A DNA stretch of 64,000 nt from Thermodesulfobacteriota bacterium (GTDB taxonomy: Bacteria > Desulfobacterota > Desulfobacteria > Desulfobacterales > C00003060): the NCBI GenBank assembly GCA_034189385.1, contig JAXHVD010000004.1, positions 64,001 through 128,000 on the forward strand, given 5' to 3'. The notes beneath the pieces were generated by a model. The model was not told where the DNA came from, searched no databases, and saw nothing but the letters and a program-made list of their open reading frames with translations. The position numbers and the translations under genes are program-made. Position 1 is the stretch's first letter; every line of letters starts with the position of its first letter. This document shows positions 15,452 to 34,522 of this stretch, in pieces.

Positions 15452-17839
15452 TCAAGGTGTGTTTGTGTGGTCGTGGCTCATTAATACTAAAGAACACCCT
15501 AGGAGCACCCCCCAAACCAGAATCACCACAGGCATACCGTGACCATTGCCCATCCCGCCCGAGCCAGCCGCCGCAATAAAACAGGTGCCGCCACCGCCGC
15601 TGGTATCTTTCGGCAATCCCACCCCGCCGGTCTCCAAGATATACCCATTCACCATTCGGTCAGCATCGCCGTCGCCACCGTCGGTGAACTCCAAGGCAAC
15701 AGAGGTCCTGTCTCCACTGAAGGTGGCATGCTCGGAGTAGTCATACCAGCCCGTGATAGGGTCATATCTGTACCATTTTGAGCCCTTGGGAGCTGCGTCC
15801 GAGAGGTGCACGACCGCTGTGGCCGCGCCATCCTCGCTTGTGGCCTTTAACCTGAAACGAATAAGTCCAAATGGGAACCGGTCAGGCCTGTTGATCCGTT
15901 CTTCAACGTCCTCAGGATCAATTGATTCAAAATATTCCAAAAAGCTATGGGCGTCTCCAGGGCTCACACCGATGGCTTTGTCTCCTGTGACACCCAGAGC
16001 TTTCACTGCCAAGTCTCCTGCCACTTGGCCTTCTGGGGCTTCCTGCTCAGCCGGAACCCCAGTGGAGATGACACGCCAAATAGCGAGGCCGCCGATGACC
16101 CCAGTAGGTGTCTGCGTGGTCACATAGAGGGAACTGCCATCAAATGCGATGCCCTGCACATCGTGGGAGGTCGTGGCTAGCTCAGTCTTCGTGGGACCCT
16201 GAATCTGAAAAACCTTTTTTCCTGCACCAGTGGTCACATAGACAAGGTCATTATATCCGTACACGGCACCAACCAGGCCGTCTTCAAAAACGAGATAATC
16301 CAAATGGGTCATCTCGCCTGAAGCAGCATCAATAAGATGGAAATAGCCGCTGCCGCCCCACACCGATTCCCCATACACCAGGGTCGTCTCATCGCTAAAA
16401 ATGATCGGACCGTTTCCACCTTCATGGGGCTGGGGGAAACTGGCCCTTTCGATGGCAGCCGTGAACCCACTGTTGACCTGATACAGATACATGTTTCCCG
16501 GAGGAAAGTCCCCTGAGGCAAACCAGATGACGTCTGTCCAGGGATTCTGGGTAAAGGAAAAGATGCTACCCTGGGCGCCGGAAGGGAAAGAGGCTACGGA
16601 AGGCACAGAAGCCGTTAAGTCAATGCGATAGATCTTGTCCGTGTTGCCGTTGTCGTGGAAGTAGAGATAATGGTCGCGGCTAATCAGAAAACCAGAAGGG
16701 CCAAAGCCGAAATCAGGTTCCTCGCTCAGATCTAAGACCTCTTTCTTGTCCCCTGTGATGAGGTGATAGGCGTAGATTTTGCCATCATGGCCAGCGTAGA
16801 TCAACTGATGGTCATGATAGGCAAGGGCGCTGTTCCAGGCAAAGGCCGCAGGATCGGGCTCCCCCAGGTACCTGGCGCGATAGGGAGGTGTGGGCACCAC
16901 TTGAACGGCCACGTCTGGGTTCCACAGCCCATGGAAGCTGATCGCGCCATCGTCCTGTCCCCCTGAAAATGGTACCTGTGTACCGACATAAAAAGACATG
17001 CCATCAAAGGCCAGACCCTGGGCATCATCAACGGTCGTGGCTATTGGCGTCTTGGCGGTGCCCTGCACTTCATAGATGGTTTTGCCTCCACCGGAAGTGG
17101 CATAGACCACCTGGTTGTAGCCGTAGGCAGCGCTGGCCAGGCCGCCATCAAAGACTAGATAATCCTCAGCAGCCATGTCCCCTGTGATGGAATCGACCAG
17201 ATGGAAATAGCCATCACCTCCCCAGACGGACTCCCCGTAAAGGAGCGTGGTTGTTCCGTTGAAAATGATTGGGCCGCTGCCACCTTCATGGGGTTGCGGA
17301 AAGGTCGCCCGTTGGGTAGCCCTGGTAAAGGCCCGATCTACCTCGAATAGATACATGTCTCCAGGGGGAAAGTCTGCCGAGGCGAACCAGAGCACATCTG
17401 TCCAGGGGTTCTCGGCAAAGCTAAAGATGCTACCAGAGGCAGCCGTGTCAACGGTTTCAAGATCAGGAGGCCAAGTGGTCGTGAGATCAATACGGTATAT
17501 GTTCTTGGTCTTGCCGTTGTCATGGAAGTAAAGGTAGTTGTCATGGCTGAGCAAGAAGCCGGAAGGGCCAAAACCAAATTTGGGATCACTGCTCAGGTCC
17601 AGCACCTCACTAGACGTGGCATTGGTCAGATCATAGGCGTAGATCTTCTGATCGTTGGCCGGATAGATCAATTGACGCTCATAGTAGCAAATGGAGCTGT
17701 TCCAGGTGAAGGGAGTCGGATAAGGAGTTTCAAGTGGTGAGGACTGCCAAAAATCTGTGGGCGTAATAGCTGCCGATAAACTCTCTCCCAACACAAACGC
17801 AAAAGACACGGCAAAGGCCATGACCATGAATTTTTTCAT
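15452..17839 (-). CDS. Secreted/surface protein: two tandem beta-propeller-like repeats, choice-of-anchor-U-like domain, GGGG-CFI-type C-terminal anchor
   Basis: Signal peptide MKKFMVMAFAV; duplicated block (FGFGPSGFL...YLYFHDNG...YGESVWGG); FPFGLIRF...WYRYDPITGW...DGGDGDAD; GGGGGTCFIAAAG plus TM helix. Confidence 0.75.
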   Translation of the reverse strand: MKKFMVMAFAVSFAFVLGESLSAAITPTDFWQSSPLETPYPTPFTWNSSICYYERQLIYPANDQKIYAYDLTNATSSEVLDLSSDPKFGFGPSGFLLSHDNYLYFHDNGKTKNIYRIDLTTTWPPDLETVDTAASGSIFSFAENPWTDVLWFASADFPPGDMYLFEVDRAFTRATQRATFPQPHEGGSGPIIFNGTTTLLYGESVWGGDGYFHLVDSITGDMAAEDYLVFDGGLASAAYGYNQVVYATSGGGKTIYEVQGTAKTPIATTVDDAQGLAFDGMSFYVGTQVPFSGGQDDGAISFHGLWNPDVAVQVVPTPPYRARYLGEPDPAAFAWNSALAYHDHQLIYAGHDGKIYAYHLITGDKKEVLDLSEEPDFGFGPSGFLISRDHYLYFHDNGNTDKIYRIDLTASVPSVASFPSGAQGSIFSFTQNPWTDVIWFASGDFPPGNMYLYQVNSGFTAAIERASFPQPHEGGNGPIIFSDETTLVYGESVWGGSGYFHLIDAASGEMTHLDYLVFEDGLVGAVYGYNDLVYVTTGAGKKVFQIQGPTKTELATTSHDVQGIAFDGSSLYVTTQTPTGVIGGLAIWRVISTGVPAEQEAPEGQVAGDLAVKALGVTGDKAIGVSPGDAHSFLEYFESIDPEDVEERINRPDRFPFGLIRFRLKATSEDGAATAVVHLSDAAPKGSKWYRYDPITGWYDYSEHATFSGDRTSVALEFTDGGDGDADRMVNGYILETGGVGLPKDTSGGGGTCFIAAAGSGGMGNGHGMPVVILVWGVLLGCSLVLMSHDHTNTP

Positions 17840-17887
17840 GACATTACTCCCCTGCAATGAGGATTACTTCCCGCCATGTGCCGCGAT

Positions 17888-20524: not shown

Positions 20525-21472
20525 ATGAACTGGAATCATCCTATAACCAGAAGACAATCGTTAAAGAGACTCGCCCGCATATCGGCAGGCCTTACAGGGG
20601 TGGCCATTGGCGGGTATTCTTTTCTGTCCCCTGGAAGTGCCAAGGCGGAGACCGGAGACGGGAAATTGCTTGTCGAAGGTGTTGCCACGAAAAAGGGCTA
20701 CAAGACTAAAGAACTGATCGTGAAGATCCTTAAAGCCGCCGGCGGCATGGAACGATTTGTCTCAAGAGGAGACGTGGTCGTCATCAAGCCTAATGTCTCG
20801 TGGGCAAGATCTCCTGAACTGGCAGCGACGACAAACCCGGAGGTCATAGAAGCGGTCATTGAGCTTTGCCTGGACGCGGGAGCCAAAAAGGTCAGGATCG
20901 CCGACCACACCATTCATGATGCCCGGCGTTGTTTTGCCCTGACCGGCGTGGGAGAGGTGGCCAAGAAGACAGGGGCCGATCTTGTCTTTCCAAGGCCCGC
21001 CCTCATGAAGCAGATGAAACTCCATGGGCAACGCCTGGATGTCTGGCCGGTCTTTGTCCCTTTGGTAGAGGCCGACAAGGTCCTGAACGTGCCTGTGGCC
21101 AAGGACCATGGGCTCAGCACATTGACGCTGGGCATGAAGAACTGGATCGGGGCTGTGGGCGGAAGGAGGAGCGCCCTTCACCAGGACATCCATCAGACGA
21201 TTGTGGACCTAGCCCAGTTTTTCAAACCCACCCTGACCCTCATAGATGCCACGAGAATCATGACAAAAAACGGTCCTTCCGGCGGAAGCCCCACAGACGT
21301 GGCTGTGAAGAATACCGTTATCTTAAGCAATGATCAGGTGGCCGCAGATGCCAAGGCCTGTGGCCTCTTTGGCCTTGCCCCCGAGGAGATCGGTTTTGTC
21401 CGCCTCGGACAAAAATGGGGCCTGGGGACCTATGATCCACAAAAACTGATACAGCAAAAGGTCGTCTTGTGA
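20525..21472 (+). CDS. Tat-exported DUF362 protein
   Basis: TRRQSLK Tat-like signal; VVIKPN, PVAKDH, TLGMKN, DQVAAD. Confidence 0.85.
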   Translation: MNWNHPITRRQSLKRLARISAGLTGVAIGGYSFLSPGSAKAETGDGKLLVEGVATKKGYKTKELIVKILKAAGGMERFVSRGDVVVIKPNVSWARSPELAATTNPEVIEAVIELCLDAGAKKVRIADHTIHDARRCFALTGVGEVAKKTGADLVFPRPALMKQMKLHGQRLDVWPVFVPLVEADKVLNVPVAKDHGLSTLTLGMKNWIGAVGGRRSALHQDIHQTIVDLAQFFKPTLTLIDATRIMTKNGPSGGSPTDVAVKNTVILSNDQVAADAKACGLFGLAPEEIGFVRLGQKWGLGTYDPQKLIQQKVVL

Positions 21473-23103
21473 AGGCAAGGCATCTGATCTGGACACGCAG
21501 AATTAGCCAGGTCGTCTTCTTTTTCTTGTTCCTTGTTCTTCTGGTGGAAAGCCGACTTCCAGAAGACGTGTACTTGGAGTACTCACTCTATTTTTCCGGT
21601 GATGGAGATATCAGGCTGGACCAGCCGCTGACCTTTTTCTTTGACCTGGACCCCCTGGTCTGGCTCTCGAGCCTGCTCTCAGGCCACCGACTCATCCATG
21701 GATTTGGGTGGGCCGTGGCGGTCCTCGTCTTGACCCTTTTTCTTGGCAGAATCTTCTGTGGGTTCATCTGTCCCCTTGGCACTATCCACCACGCCGTAAG
21801 TTGGATTCGGCCTGCTCTAAAAGCCCAGTCCATGGTTCGGGCCAACCAAAAGACCCCAGCCCAGAGGATAAAATATTTCCTCCTCATTGCCGTCCTTGTG
21901 TCAGCCCTCATGGGTCTCAACCTGGCAGGGTTGATCGATCCCATAGCGCTGCTTTTCAGATCCCTGGCCCTGGCCGTGGTGCCGGCGGTGGGTGTAGGGA
22001 TCAAAGGGATTTTTGATGCTATGGCGGCAAGCGACATAAAGCTTCTAAACTATCTGAGCTATGGCGGCGAGGCTCTTGTGTCGCCTGTCTTCGGCTACGG
22101 GTACCCTGCCTACCAGACGGCCTGGTTTATCGGTCTGGTTTTTCTTGTTATTCTCTTCCTAAATAGAATCAGGCCCCGTTTCTGGTGCCGCGTGCTCTGT
22201 CCCCTGGGGGCCCTCCTAGGGATATGCTCAAGGTTCAGTGTCCTGAGGCTGGAAAAGGATCATGAAAAGTGCACGGACTGCAAGTTGTGCTCAAAAACCT
22301 GCCAGGGGGCGGCCTCACCTGCACCGGGCCAGGATTGGGAAAACGCCGAGTGCGTGCTTTGCTTTAATTGCTTCCATGCCTGTCCTGAGGAGGCCCTTTC
22401 TTTTCGATTCAGGTGGCGGCCGACCATGAACAAAAAGCCGGATATGGGCCGGCGCGCCGTGCTCACTGGCCTTGCGGCTGGCATGTCGCTGCCGCTTCTC
22501 ACAGGACTTGACAGCCAGGCACATCATGTTTCAGATCCCCGCTTGATCAGGCCGCCAGGGGCCCTGCCTGAAAAGGATTTTTTAAGACTCTGCCAGAGGT
22601 GCGGCCTGTGCATGAAGGTGTGCCCCACAAATGCCATCAACCCCACCCTTGGGGAGGCAGGATTGGCTGGTTTCTGGACTCCCCACCTCATCATGACCCA
22701 GGGGTACTGCGAATATACCTGCACCCTCTGTGGCAGTGTCTGCCCCACAGGGGCCATCACAGAGATATCTGCCAGGGAGAAGATTGACCGTCCCATTAGA
22801 ATCGGGTCTGCCTATGTGGACCGGGGACGGTGTCTCCCATGGTCCGGCAATGGCCCGTGTATTGTATGCCAGGAGCTCTGCCCTACGTCACCAAAGGCCA
22901 TTTACCTGAAGAAAGAAGCCGTATCAGGGGCAGGTAAGACCTGGCTGGTAGATGTGCCCCGTGTGGATTTGAAACGGTGTGTGGGATGCGGGATCTGTGA
23001 AACAAAATGCCCGGTGAAGGGAAAGCCGGCCATTACAGTCATTGCCGCAGGCGAATCCAGGTCTATTGAGAACCAGATACTACTGCCGGATTTGGTGCCT
23101 TGA
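21469..23103 (+). CDS. Membrane polyferredoxin (NapH/MauN plus NapG/MauM-like fusion)
   Basis: FCGFICPLG and WCRVLCPLG; IRPPGA...CQRCGLCMKVCP; several 4Fe-4S motifs. Confidence 0.85.
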   Translation: MKARHLIWTRRISQVVFFFLFLVLLVESRLPEDVYLEYSLYFSGDGDIRLDQPLTFFFDLDPLVWLSSLLSGHRLIHGFGWAVAVLVLTLFLGRIFCGFICPLGTIHHAVSWIRPALKAQSMVRANQKTPAQRIKYFLLIAVLVSALMGLNLAGLIDPIALLFRSLALAVVPAVGVGIKGIFDAMAASDIKLLNYLSYGGEALVSPVFGYGYPAYQTAWFIGLVFLVILFLNRIRPRFWCRVLCPLGALLGICSRFSVLRLEKDHEKCTDCKLCSKTCQGAASPAPGQDWENAECVLCFNCFHACPEEALSFRFRWRPTMNKKPDMGRRAVLTGLAAGMSLPLLTGLDSQAHHVSDPRLIRPPGALPEKDFLRLCQRCGLCMKVCPTNAINPTLGEAGLAGFWTPHLIMTQGYCEYTCTLCGSVCPTGAITEISAREKIDRPIRIGSAYVDRGRCLPWSGNGPCIVCQELCPTSPKAIYLKKEAVSGAGKTWLVDVPRVDLKRCVGCGICETKCPVKGKPAITVIAAGESRSIENQILLPDLVP

Positions 23104-23147: not shown

Positions 23148-24011
23148 CTACTGGAGCAGATACCATGGGTCAGGCATCTGATATGCCGGGATGGTGGAGT
23201 GATAGTGCATGACCTTGTCGAACTTGTCAATAACACCGGAGGCCATGGTGTCCTCTGAGTAATTTGTCTCGCTCACGAGGTTAGGCGAGGTGCCACCTGG
23301 TGTATAAGCGGAGTCACCTTCCATCAACCTGACCAGCATGGAGGCAGATGCCGTGCCGATACCCTCTGCGGAGATCTGATGATTAAGAGACGGCGGGCCT
23401 GTGGCTGTCACATCTGAATCCGTGTGAGATACCATAATACTCGTGGTCAACGTATCACTCCCGGCTGCGATGAACTCATTGGTTGCTGGTATAGTCTCAG
23501 CGACTGCCCAGGGACAAAGTGAAGGCATGTCACCCAACCCTGCGCTGTCTCCATTGGCAATAATACTCAGACCCACCCTTTCCTTGTCCTGGGCCGTTGC
23601 GATGAGACTCGCCTGTGAAGCCACATATCCTATGTCCTTACTGACCTTTAGGTTCGGTTCATTGTCTGATGTAGCATCAAAGCTGTTCTTAAACTCAATG
23701 AGACCATCAATGGCATCCAGTTCATTGGAATAAACGATCTGGGCGGCCCGGCCGCCGGCATCAAGATATTGCTCTATATTGCCTTGACCTACGGTGCTAG
23801 ATCCATTCTCTTCTGTATCGTGCATCCACGTCCAGGTAATGGACTGAACTGCTTCTAAATCCCCCGCAACCTCCACATCGGTATTGAGACTAATGCCCAG
23901 GCCGGCTGGTGGCGGTGGCACCGGAGGACTTGCCAAGCCAAGGGTGCCCATGCAACAGACAAAGACGATGGTCAAGCAAAAAAGCAAAATATTATCAACA
24001 AGTTTTATCAT
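23148..24011 (-). CDS. Secreted beta-rich protein resembling the Methanomicrobiales sheath-protein-like family
   Basis: Signal peptide; motifs LCPW...PATNE..AAGS, LNHQI, GTASA, YSEDTMASGVIDKFDKVMHYHS; own promoter TTGACA-17-TAAAAA at 24079-24107. Confidence 0.55.
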   Translation of the reverse strand: MIKLVDNILLFCLTIVFVCCMGTLGLASPPVPPPPAGLGISLNTDVEVAGDLEAVQSITWTWMHDTEENGSSTVGQGNIEQYLDAGGRAAQIVYSNELDAIDGLIEFKNSFDATSDNEPNLKVSKDIGYVASQASLIATAQDKERVGLSIIANGDSAGLGDMPSLCPWAVAETIPATNEFIAAGSDTLTTSIMVSHTDSDVTATGPPSLNHQISAEGIGTASASMLVRLMEGDSAYTPGGTSPNLVSETNYSEDTMASGVIDKFDKVMHYHSTIPAYQMPDPWYLLQ

Positions 24012-24336
24012 TTTCTAACCTCTCTGTTTCTCTTTTCTAGCCACATCAGGCCATTTTCTGGTGCGTAAAAGGGATACTTTTTTACCATGTCCAGCGATGC
24101 CTGTCAATTCAAATGACGCGCATGACTGGTTCGGTTGCAATCTTCTAACGGCATCGCTTATTTTTTCACCGTTGTTTGTCCGACGCCTTCCCATCTGGTG
24201 GCCCTTGACCGGTTCACGCAAAGGGGGCCCTGGCAGGACGCAAGCCGAGGCGCCTTCAACGACCTACTGGTAATTCGACATCATATATAGTAAATTCGGA
24301 AGCATAGAGGCTAAAAGATCCGTAAGGCCCTGTGGT

Positions 24337-24915
24337 GTGCAGGGCCCATTTGTTGGGGGCATAGCAAGGTTACCTGTATGCAAAATAAGCCCCCCCATGA
24401 CGAATTGGAAAAGAGAGTCAGGGCCTTGGAGGAAGAGGCTACTTGGCCGCAGGAAGGCTGAGGCCGCGCTGAGGGAAAGCGAAGTTCGCCTGAAGACTGT
24501 GTTGGATACGATTCAGGCCGAAATCGCGGTTATCGACCCGAAAACCCACCTTATCGTCGGTTCCGATGCCGCGGCCGGAAACATGTTCGGCGCTCCCAGG
24601 GAAGAGATTCTCGGCAGAGTGTGCCACAAGAGTTTCTGTGGGGCAAAAAAGGGCCAATGCCCCGTCACGGACTTAAATGAGCGTTTGGACAATGCAGAAC
24701 AGACGCTACTCCCGGCAAAAGGTGAAAAGGTACCGATTCTAAAGACCGTGGTCTCTGTGACGCTGGCTGGCCGAGAGCATTCGCTTGAAAGCTTCGTGGA
24801 CATCACTGAAAGAAAGCGGGCCAAGGAAGAGCGGGGGAGACTGATTCGGGAACTCCAAGAGGCCTTGGCACCCAAGCGGCACGAAGGTTGCCGATCCTCT
24901 GTCATTATTAGCTGA
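24337..24915 (+). pseudogene. Decayed PAS-domain sensor fragment
   Basis: AEAALRESEVRLKTVLDTIQ...CPVTD...ESFVDITERKRA; N-terminus appears frameshifted and there is no output domain. Confidence 0.6.
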
Positions 24916-32673: not shown

Positions 32674-33117
32674 ATGCTGGACTACACCTTCAAGCTGGAC
32701 TTCCAGGTTCGTGATTACGAATGCGATATGCAGGGTATCGTCAATAACGCCGTCTATCAGAACTATTTGGAACACACGCGTCATGCCTTCCTGCAGACCC
32801 TTGGGATCGACTTTGCTGAAGTGACAAGGCGAAAGATCCATCTCGTGGTCATCCGGGCAGAACTCGACTACAGGCACCCCCTTAGTAGTGGCGATCGTTT
32901 TTGGGTTGGACTGAACCTGGAACGGGTATCACCCATCCGGTTTGCCTTCCTGCAGGACGTATACAGACACCCCGACCATCGACTTATCTTAAATGCCAGG
33001 ATCATTGGAACGGCCATGAACGAAAAAGGGCGGCCAGAACTGCCACCAGAGATTGAACGGATGCTGGCCGGAGGGGTATGGAAAAGGAGTCAGGGAGACC
33101 ACGATGAAAACGTTTAG
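32674..33117 (+). CDS. 4HBT/YbgC-like acyl-CoA thioesterase
   Basis: VRDYECDMQGIVNNAVYQNYLEHTR. Confidence 0.9.
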   Translation: MLDYTFKLDFQVRDYECDMQGIVNNAVYQNYLEHTRHAFLQTLGIDFAEVTRRKIHLVVIRAELDYRHPLSSGDRFWVGLNLERVSPIRFAFLQDVYRHPDHRLILNARIIGTAMNEKGRPELPPEIERMLAGGVWKRSQGDHDENV

Positions 33118-34522
33118 AACCAGTGTGCTGGGCACCCTTTTGAGCTTTGTTGCCATGGGCCTCTGTATGGCACCCGTGGGGATGGCCAGTGCTCCTGCAA
33201 AAAAAGAAGAGCCCAAGATTACCACCGAGATTACACACAAACCGATCCCCTATTTCGTGCCCGAAAGCAGAATCGGGCTCAAGGTCAGAATCATGGATAA
33301 GCATAGCATTAACCTTGTGCGATGCTATTTCCGTGCCGCCCAGGAGAGGGACTATGTTTTTGTCACCATGATGCCGATAGTCGATTTCTATGAGGGGATT
33401 CTTCCTTCACCCAGTAAAGAGACAGAAGCTATTCAATACCTCTTCTTGGTGGTGAACGGCCGCAACCAAGTGGTGAAAACACAAACATTCGAAGTGAAGA
33501 AGAAGGATAAAGACAAGATCCCACCGTGGCAGCGAATAAGCTCAAAGGGCGACATCCGAGTGATCACTGAATTGGCCCAGCCCCCCAAGACGCTAGCAGG
33601 TTTCTCACACGCCATTGCCGTGGAAGTGGCTGAATCGTATTCGCGTTTCGGCTTTGTTGTAGATGGCCTTTACACAACCACACAGCAGGCAAGGGCTGGG
33701 GGACCCATCGGCATTGCTGCAGCAGCTGAATACGCAGGCACCGTTTTGGCCAAGACAGGAGATCGATCAACACTGGCCTATGTTGGCATAGGTGCTGCCC
33801 TGTTGGCAGGAGGGGCAGCGGCCGCAGGTGGAGGGGGCGGTGGAGGGGGAAATGGCAACCCAGCGACATCGTCATCAACGACAACGATCCCCTTCACAAC
33901 CACGTCATCGACCACAACATCAACGACAGTGCCTTCTACCACTTCCTCCACCACGACAGTGCCGTCAACCACCACAGTGCTGACGACAACATCTACCACT
34001 TCGGTGCCTGTCATAACAACATCTACCACCTCGGTGCCTGTCATAACAACATCTACCACCTCGGTGCCTGTGACAACAACATCTACCACCTCCTCCACCA
34101 CGACTGTGACGGCTCCCACCACGTCCACTACGTCATTTGCTCCCTGCACAGAAAACCAGCCCCCAAAGATGATCAGTGTCACGCCATATGGCTATCCAAA
34201 CACCACGTCTCTATGTGTGGGGGATCGCATGGCCTTTACGGCGAGCGCCTATGACGCTGATACGAATTGTGACATCCAACGGATTCACGTAAGGATTGTA
34301 AACACCAGCACGGGCGAAGAACGGGCGCAAGACTTCACTCCCCAACCTGGAACAGCCACCACCCATTTTACTGTCTCGGGGATCACCAATTACACCATTG
34401 GATTCGAGCAGGTGCAGTATTGCCTCTATGTGAGCCTGCTCGACAGATGCGGAAATTGGAGCGATGAGTTGTCCCGTTGCGCCTACAGCACCCCTTGCCC
34501 TGGCCACAGGGAATATCCTTAA
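33104..34522 (+). CDS. Secreted protein with a Thr/Ser-rich linker
   Basis: Signal peptide, Ig-like N-domain, GAALLAGGAAAAGGGG segment, about 90-aa T/S/V/P tract, Cys-containing C-domain. Confidence 0.65.
   Translation: MKTFRTSVLGTLLSFVAMGLCMAPVGMASAPAKKEEPKITTEITHKPIPYFVPESRIGLKVRIMDKHSINLVRCYFRAAQERDYVFVTMMPIVDFYEGILPSPSKETEAIQYLFLVVNGRNQVVKTQTFEVKKKDKDKIPPWQRISSKGDIRVITELAQPPKTLAGFSHAIAVEVAESYSRFGFVVDGLYTTTQQARAGGPIGIAAAAEYAGTVLAKTGDRSTLAYVGIGAALLAGGAAAAGGGGGGGGNGNPATSSSTTTIPFTTTSSTTTSTTVPSTTSSTTTVPSTTTVLTTTSTTSVPVITTSTTSVPVITTSTTSVPVTTTSTTSSTTTVTAPTTSTTSFAPCTENQPPKMISVTPYGYPNTTSLCVGDRMAFTASAYDADTNCDIQRIHVRIVNTSTGEERAQDFTPQPGTATTHFTVSGITNYTIGFEQVQYCLYVSLLDRCGNWSDELSRCAYSTPCPGHREYP
33984..34092 (+). 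repeat. 30-bp coding tandem repeat (about 3.5 copies; TTSTTSVPVI)
   Basis: ACAACATCTACCACYTCGGTGCCTGTCATA repeated. Confidence 0.85.

Follow-up and report, generated by a model that had tools for sequence, protein, structure and literature searches.

Sequence comparison supports the view that the archaeal sheath (SH/MspA) family has a bacterial branch whose genes are tied to a curli-type pore, so joining two systems already known. The member studied here is the product (P0001) of a single gene in the window, i.e., the 64,000-nucleotide stretch of a Thermodesulfobacteriota contig that was analysed. Judged by profile comparison, P0001 is a genuine homologue of the archaeal family; the preliminary description of this DNA had likened it to Methanospirillum-type sheath proteins, and the profile similarity that such a likeness calls for was found, the HHalign probability being 99.93% for Methanomicrobiales-type proteins (E 8.4e-36) and 96.4% for a set of 37 Methanospirillum-type proteins (E 1.3e-9), and the predicted topology matches as well. 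At the level of sequence, this bacterial family contradicts the archaea-only view of a 2024 survey, which reports no structural SH homologue in Bacteria and considers the sheath likely to be unique to archaea (PMC11576556). The survey began with a Foldseek search of UniProt50 and went on to archaeal genomes alone, a scope that may explain why bacterial members confined to metagenome-assembled genomes (MAGs) were missed. Among titles and the opening lines of abstracts, with most subscription journals outside coverage, we found no paper on a bacterial sheath homologue or on a link between SH and CsgG.

On comparative grounds the open reading frame is a real gene: at E<=0.001, 118 of 4467 candidate sequences are its relatives, and a narrow profile (A1) built from 106 close relatives recovers 268 proteins from 1.84 billion representatives; a second homologue search with a broad profile (A2) gave 105 matches and added almost nothing. 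The gene is monocistronic, as had been proposed, lying alone between a convergent 4Fe-4S gene, from which 44 bases separate it, and a PAS gene that points away from it and starts at 24337 (Table 1). The convergent pair at 20525-23103 (+), a DUF362 gene followed by one for a membrane 4Fe-4S polyferredoxin, gives no hint of linkage to it, and the neighbours scanned in the window offered no phage context. A promoter of its own, also proposed, can be made out by eye, but a consensus scan of the upstream region returned 0 sites against a shuffle mean of 1.5; the scan missed the sequence because its rule demands T at the last position, and we regard it as a plausible candidate only. Upstream of the SH paralogues there is no sigma-54 site and no convincing common motif. 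In one metatranscriptome, two 151-base contigs of depth 2 are near-matches to the gene (1 and 2 differences), while its flanks are without near-identical cover; this is too little to prove transcription, and the source could be DNA.

Table 1. Features of the P0001 gene and its upstream region, in window coordinates.
Feature	Position	Strand	Remarks and basis
SH-family gene P0001, secreted product	23148..24011	(-)	287 aa, ATG start; stand-alone paralogue
Signal peptide, residues 1-27	23931..24011	(-)	putative cleavage after GLA; by eye and model
Pro-rich N-terminus SPPVPPPP, residues 28-35	23907..23930	(-)	also in ANME-1 homologues
Core, residues 39-271, six long beta segments	23199..23897	(-)	AlphaFold
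Linker loop, residues 153-176, holding C166 (LCPW)	23484..23555	(-)	alignments and model
Pro-rich C-terminal tail past last strand	23151..23198	(-)	alignments
Ribosome-binding site AGAGG	24019..24023	(-)	by eye
Possible sigma-70 promoter TTGACA-17-TAAAAA with TG extension	24079..24107	(-)	by eye; not in consensus scan

The protein features first read from the letters were all recovered. The signal peptide, called by eye and from an AlphaFold helix at residues 7-21, ends in A27, which is nearly invariant in alignments A1 and A2; the proline-rich N-terminus follows, and the body is acidic and rich in beta-strand, its mature chain having 35 D+E against 9 K+R, 49 S+T, a single Cys and six long predicted beta segments. 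The motif series (LCPW.., LNHQI, GTASA.. and the terminal motif) is complete, all five elements being present at residues 165-185, 209-213, 219-232 and 258-272. C166, the sole Cys of the mature chain, is invariant in A1 and nearly so in A2, and is aligned with the invariant Cys of alignment A3; model pLDDT is low around it, at residues 164-170. With 287 residues, a signal peptide and no Ig domains, P0001 fits the SH-family range of 150-350 aa. Its proline-rich C-terminal tail has similar counterparts in ANME-1 homologues and is absent from most of the Methanomicrobiales-type ones shown. The same kind of tail is also seen in otherwise unrelated reading frames of the host genome, here called G000 (G000:C6:4125-4643 (-) and C20:48044-48217 (+)), and in protein P0237. 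The window encodes two further large secreted proteins: an 801-aa product at 15452-17857 (-), with two repeated beta-rich halves, a Gly-rich CFI tail that is presumably a CFI-box sorting tag, and no Pfam match above cut-off; and a 489-aa product at 33053-34522 (+), which has a long Thr/Ser-rich stalk and matches no Pfam family.

The kinship with Methanomicrobiales proteins that was first suggested holds as profile homology, but the nearest archaeal relatives belong to ANME-1 (Methanophagales). The A1 profile matches the ANME-1 proteins P0134 and P0144 at E 1.2e-54 and 5.2e-49, and P0001 is 29% identical to P0134 over 309 columns. In BLAST searches with P0001, ANME-1/Halobacteriota proteins scored 82-110 bits against a maximum of 22.3 bits among 300 shuffles, and Methanospirillum proteins only 15-38.5 bits. 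Of ten matches checked on the archaeal side of the tree described below, five fell in named clusters, two from Methanophagaceae, one from Halobacteriota and two from Methanomicrobiales, and so without exception archaeal; ten proteins checked on the bacterial side led to clusters without organism names. The Methanospirillum members fall below E 0.001 in 120 of 120 cases with A2 and in 21 of 120 with A1, and the connection to MspA itself (WP_011449234.1) is made by way of homologues from M. lacunae and other Methanospirillum and a single viral protein on the published list. None of the proteins gathered has the N-terminal motif of the first M. hungatei row, which is taken as MspA. The Methanospirillum set was reached via viral protein P0308 (IMG/VR locus L022), which by eye reads as vir387_00084 of PMC11576556; it gave E 3.3e-10 with A2 (as P0309), and a comparison of A1 with that single protein only 58%. 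Two of eight loci on this route were confirmed, and no viral relative of the bacterial SH clade was confirmed with A1 among 105 pattern matches. Against 13 viral Methanothrix-type proteins HHalign gave 18.6%, aligned over the signal peptide only, and these proteins, not being alignable, were left out as an outgroup. The survey needed structure-based alignment to join SH groups (PMC11576556). Neither Pfam nor NCBIfam has a family that covers P0001 or the scanned archaeal members, and a PDB sequence search with P0001 gave one chance match (E 0.87).

The AlphaFold model of P0001 (pLDDT 83.4, pTM 0.76) places its beta segments at residues 39-65, 87-114, 121-152, 177-202, 208-232 and 245-271, with the C166 loop between the third and fourth. 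A model of the M. lacunae homologue (pLDDT 75.0) has the same six-segment layout, the two being compared by order of segments. In the M. hungatei subunit described by Wang et al. (PMC10593813), six beta-arches make up a pair of six-stranded sheets and the tip of the linker carries a Cys; read against it, each segment of the P0001 model would be one beta-arch, and together they would form two six-stranded sheets. Foldseek with the P0001 model found nothing at E<=0.001 among viral models and a single match in the PDB, a perforin at TM 0.13, and the best VIA-align results (Z 6.2, rmsd 11.1 over 127 residues) were beta-barrels and pore proteins. These blanks are uninformative, since fold searches with an archaeal control model were equally blank and found no SH match in the PDB. 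The ESM Atlas gave no usable match for P0001, for which its own model had a pLDDT of 0.30, or for the CsgF-like protein introduced below. A homodimer model of residues 34-278 (ends trimmed) scored 0.60 against 0.00 for the best of three controls; in reference sets, 20 of the 30 known homodimers and 1 of the 23 monomers attained the mark. Partner pLDDT was at least 69; of the three runs one gave just 0.28, and agreement between runs is at least 0% of contacts. The model predicts that P0001 binds itself edge strand to edge strand, the first segment pairing with itself (residues 36-65 of both copies), and the arrangement is head to head, not head to tail. In the M. hungatei ring the last strand is joined to the first (PMC10593813).

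G000 is a metagenome bin of 4.13 Mb that is 90% complete and has no 16S gene in its assembly; it belongs to a sulfate reducer and carries DsrB above cut-off, as does a second genome of the genus, G013. A third, G001 (75% complete), has no DsrB match above cut-off. The SH repertoire of G000 comprises six full copies on six contigs, 51-71% identical, along with two short secreted forms, divergent types B and C, and one type B core fused to Ig domains. The short forms (G000:C2:104607-105248 (-) and C2:7240-7713 (-)) retain just the final two to three long strands, and it is possible that they act as caps or terminators of a growing sheet. The Ig-fused form, in which a type B SH core is joined to Ig-like repeats (G000:C14:44902-47373 (-), L193; an N run lies near its end), parallels the 'sheath adhesins' of archaea. 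Elsewhere SH cores stand behind other domains, as in P0137, which has an N-terminal domain of unknown type (554 aa), and P0259, with DUF11/DUF7507 Ig-like repeats (639 aa). The genome also contains 27 reading frames with at least three CxxCH motifs, up to 14 in the 1300-aa proteins on contig C1, which may bear on extracellular electron transfer.

Another contig of G000 connects these proteins with a pore. On one strand of G000:C18:21180-27655 (L127:5181-11656) lie genes for CsgG, type B, an SH protein, type C, a small acidic protein, a CsgF-like protein and a secreted Hsp20-domain protein, types C and B being divergent SH-family members that match the family with HHalign probabilities of 98.3% and 95.8%. 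This cluster is likely to be the assembly locus for the SH gene of the window, which has no adjoining CsgG of its own. A tRNA-like stretch apparently lies near the cluster, by eye. Linkage of SH and CsgG recurs in two other Desulfobacterota genomes and on two metagenome contigs: the gene order of C18 is repeated in L002, which spans the same stretch as the locus of G013 and is counted once with it, and rearranged clusters occur in G256 (L128), a genome of another class, and on contigs L042 and L087, which come from one assembly yet carry distinct SH clades. On a further contig, L054, genes for SH, C, B and the CsgF-like protein continue to where the contig stops. Also in G256, an SH gene at G256:C186:2411-3209 (L129) has a short stretch of N within it, probably a gap in the assembly, and adjoins a PilS/PilR-like pair.

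All five SH-linked CsgG copies (L127, L002, L128, L042 and L087) exceed the Pfam cut-off, and SH-linked CsgG matches E. coli CsgG at E 2e-10, is full-length and has a lipobox by eye. The best NCBIfam match is curli CsgG in four of four SH-linked copies tested, at scores below the NCBIfam cut-off (505), and two unlinked family members match LpoB best. Because the Pfam model is unspecific, with 26% correct hits (PMC3521004), the weight rests on linkage and on co-occurrence, SH genes and this CsgG being found in the same 2 of 37 genomes of the genus (G000 and G013). No curlin repeats of CsgA/CsgB were found in G000, G013 or G256 (89-93% complete), E. coli serving as positive control, which means that this is not a curli system, though export may resemble that of curli. 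The CsgF-like neighbour is a conserved small secreted protein; Pfam CsgF matched one of six copies at E 0.022, under the cut-off, and searches of the PDB and the Atlas and a genome search gave no CsgF match, so that its sequence points only weakly to CsgF. CsgE, CsgC and CsgD had no match among the cluster proteins scanned.

Metagenomes add breadth: 48 of 97 pattern loci were confirmed, on 47 contigs, many as tandem arrays. CsgG is present on 2 of the 47 and the CsgF-like gene on 3, most contigs being under 2.5 kb and too short to tell. No CsgG was found on the archaeal-looking contigs L057, L058 and L099 (2.5-4.7 kb), where SH adjoins type C in each case, with type B also on two and an HTH_45 gene on two. 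The archaeal-looking type C is 34% identical to that of G000 (E 6e-31); for type B the G000 and archaeal-looking proteins match weakly by BLAST (E 0.015). By sequence, what the two domains have in common is a small cassette and not one gene, since the archaeal-looking contigs carry SH beside a type C so similar to that of G000.

The distribution of the family is patchy. It occurs in 1 of 36 other genomes of the genus (G013) and, G013 apart, in 1 of 400 genomes sampled across the phylum (G256), in whose class it is found in 1 of 7 genomes; 400 genomes sampled from the order contained no convincing member. These phylum, order and class counts describe samples and are not proof of absence. Two of the order genomes gave weak matches to the first 50 profile positions (E 5.4e-4 and 8.5e-4), which were not counted; one of them, at the end of its contig, may be a truncated gene. 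G256 itself has 2.2 Mb, about 40% GC at its SH loci and a class of 7 genomes, which would fit relatives of HotSeep-1. In a quick tree of 73 rows, all archaeal rows identified by name or context fall on one side and all rows of bacterial context on the other (SH-aLRT 94), 24 of the 43 rows on the bacterial side being unlabelled and some placed by kinship only. A careful tree of 43 rows, rooted on type C, sets the archaeal type A clade (97/91) within an unresolved base of bacterial and unlabelled rows, and archaeal type C beside that of G000 (96/81); rooting the tree between the two domains is not significantly worse (p-AU 0.445 and 0.464). Inter-domain transfer of SH genes is likely from these comparisons, being the simplest account of the patchy spread; the transfer first suggested is thus retained, and the tests of the root are compatible with either direction. 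A wider scenario would have several anaerobic bacterial lineages building an archaeal-type amyloid sheath via CsgG (type VIII secretion with a non-curlin cargo), with the ANME-1/Methanospirillum branch descending from the bacterial system, through ANME-1 in methane-oxidising consortia and then Methanomicrobiales; taken whole, we think this unlikely.

In proposing what P0001 does, our contention, to which we give an even chance, is that it serves as a building block in a bacterial surface coat of archaeal sheath type, exported through CsgG and polymerising edge to edge; export, polymerisation and the sheath shape of such a cross-beta coat are what we infer from the comparisons above. P0001 would be exported by Sec and its signal peptide cleaved, and the unfolded chain would be held in the periplasm, perhaps aided by the secreted Hsp20-domain protein of the cluster. 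It would cross the outer membrane via the curli-type CsgG encoded on C18 with the CsgF-like protein, the window copy acting as a stand-alone paralogue that uses the pore in trans. Once outside, the chain would fold to its six predicted beta-arches and join edge to edge into two continuous cross-beta sheets, and the linker Cys, by analogy with M. hungatei, would cross-link neighbouring rings into a hoop-like layer round cells or cell chains. The C18 copy, which has TTGACA boxes upstream, may be the major subunit, the divergent types and the Ig-fused form would supply minor and adhesive subunits, and the proline-rich C-terminal tail may be a targeting or docking tag. The paralogue repertoire, which resembles that of sheathed archaea, speaks for a coat, as do the homology and predicted topology, the linkage and co-occurrence with CsgG, the missing curlin repeats and the score of the dimer model; the head-to-head arrangement and divergent runs of that model, the single mature Cys, where the M. 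hungatei model uses two, the sub-threshold CsgF and NCBIfam CsgG matches and the isolated position of the window copy speak against it.

The same export and cross-beta assembly could instead yield an open ribbon or fibre in a biofilm matrix, with a curli-like role and no closed hoop. This we consider less likely than a coat. In its favour, CsgG normally nucleates fibres at the cell surface (PMC12520557), the dimer model is head to head, and P0001 has no large cap, whereas in M. hungatei ring curvature is ascribed to cap contacts and a strand break (PMC10593813). The cap is, however, also missing in many archaeal SH proteins (PMC11576556), and the linker Cys and mix of paralogues are retained here as in sheathed archaea. 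A rather improbable alternative is that the subunits are exported to attach to, or polymerise together with, sheaths made by archaeal partners, for instance ANME-1, the closest archaeal relatives, with which both proline-rich ends and a neighbouring type C gene are shared. The survey proposes that SH-like proteins of viruses become part of the host sheath and pictures bacteria inside ANME-1 sheaths (PMC11576556), and the CxxCH-rich reading frames of G000 would suit such a partnership; yet identity to the ANME-1 subunits is only about 30%, and the bacterial proteins have radiated deeply by themselves and include tandem arrays, as would suit a structure that the bacterium makes for its own use.

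If the fold alone were shared and P0001 were not an extracellular polymer, it might act as a scaffold in the periplasm or form a small closed oligomer, with CsgG serving another cargo. CsgG-family genes are indeed common without curli, and the weak fold matches are to beta-barrels and pore proteins, but such matches do not rise above background and are also obtained with the archaeal control model, the chain, being acidic and polar, does not look like that of a membrane protein, and the CsgG link recurs across distant bacterial clades; we hold this reading to be rather improbable as well. That archaeal DNA was mis-binned or mis-assembled into a bacterial genome is largely refuted and now extremely improbable, even though G000 is a metagenome bin with 4.19% contamination and the family is missing from 35 of the 36 other genomes of the genus. 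The window contig is 195 kb long and has a tetranucleotide correlation of 0.995 to G000, and the other SH contigs C6, C64, C18 and C20 lie at 0.973-0.994, the 3.8-kb C49 at only 0.805; GC3 of the P0001 gene (0.547) is within one standard deviation of the value for 814 long open reading frames of G000 (0.596 +/- 0.052). Neighbouring genes look bacterial (UvrC, Lon and CysRS by eye, PilS and a sigma-54 regulator by Pfam), two Thermodesulfobacteriota MAGs at NCBI carry six named SH copies each, and CsgG is an outer-membrane lipoprotein.

The CsgG link suggests an export route for an SH protein in a bacterium with an outer membrane, and a sulfate-reducing host may build a protein coat similar to that of the archaea. 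If the proposed reading is true, the cargo of CsgG is not confined to curlin but includes another class, and sediment anaerobes have passed a structure of the cell envelope from one domain to the other, its nearest archaeal relatives being in ANME-1. To our knowledge no assembly factors have been found for the archaeal sheath, because archaeal SH genes are without conserved neighbours; the bacterial cluster offers candidates in types B and C and in the CsgF-like, small acidic and Hsp20-domain proteins.

Set beside known systems, the bacterial SH proteins come closest to those of ANME-1 (Alkanophagales/Methanophagales; e.g., KAF5417779.1 and KAF5431402.1), which have about 30% identity to P0001 over the full length and have in common with them the proline-rich start and tail, the linker Cys, a neighbouring type C gene, many copies and Ig-fused forms. 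Unlike ANME-1, the bacterial host has an outer membrane, and genes for CsgG, the CsgF-like protein and the Hsp20-domain protein are linked. P0001 resembles M. hungatei MspA (WP_011449234.1, Mhun_2271) and its Methanospirillum homologues in six long beta segments, a signal peptide, a linker Cys and a gene outside any operon, but identity to that group is only about 20-25%, and P0001 differs in having no large helical cap, one Cys and a proline-rich C-terminal tail. As to the SH-like proteins of archaeal viruses (vir387_00084, PMC11576556), the L022 member scores with A2, and no viral relative of the bacterial clade was confirmed among the 105 pattern matches. With curli and type VIII secretion the cluster shares a full-length CsgG lipoprotein, a small secreted neighbour with a CsgF-like start and, as proposed, an amyloid subunit exported unfolded; unlike curli, it has no curlin repeats, and the proposed cargo would be a 260-residue beta-arch protein rather than a beta-solenoid.
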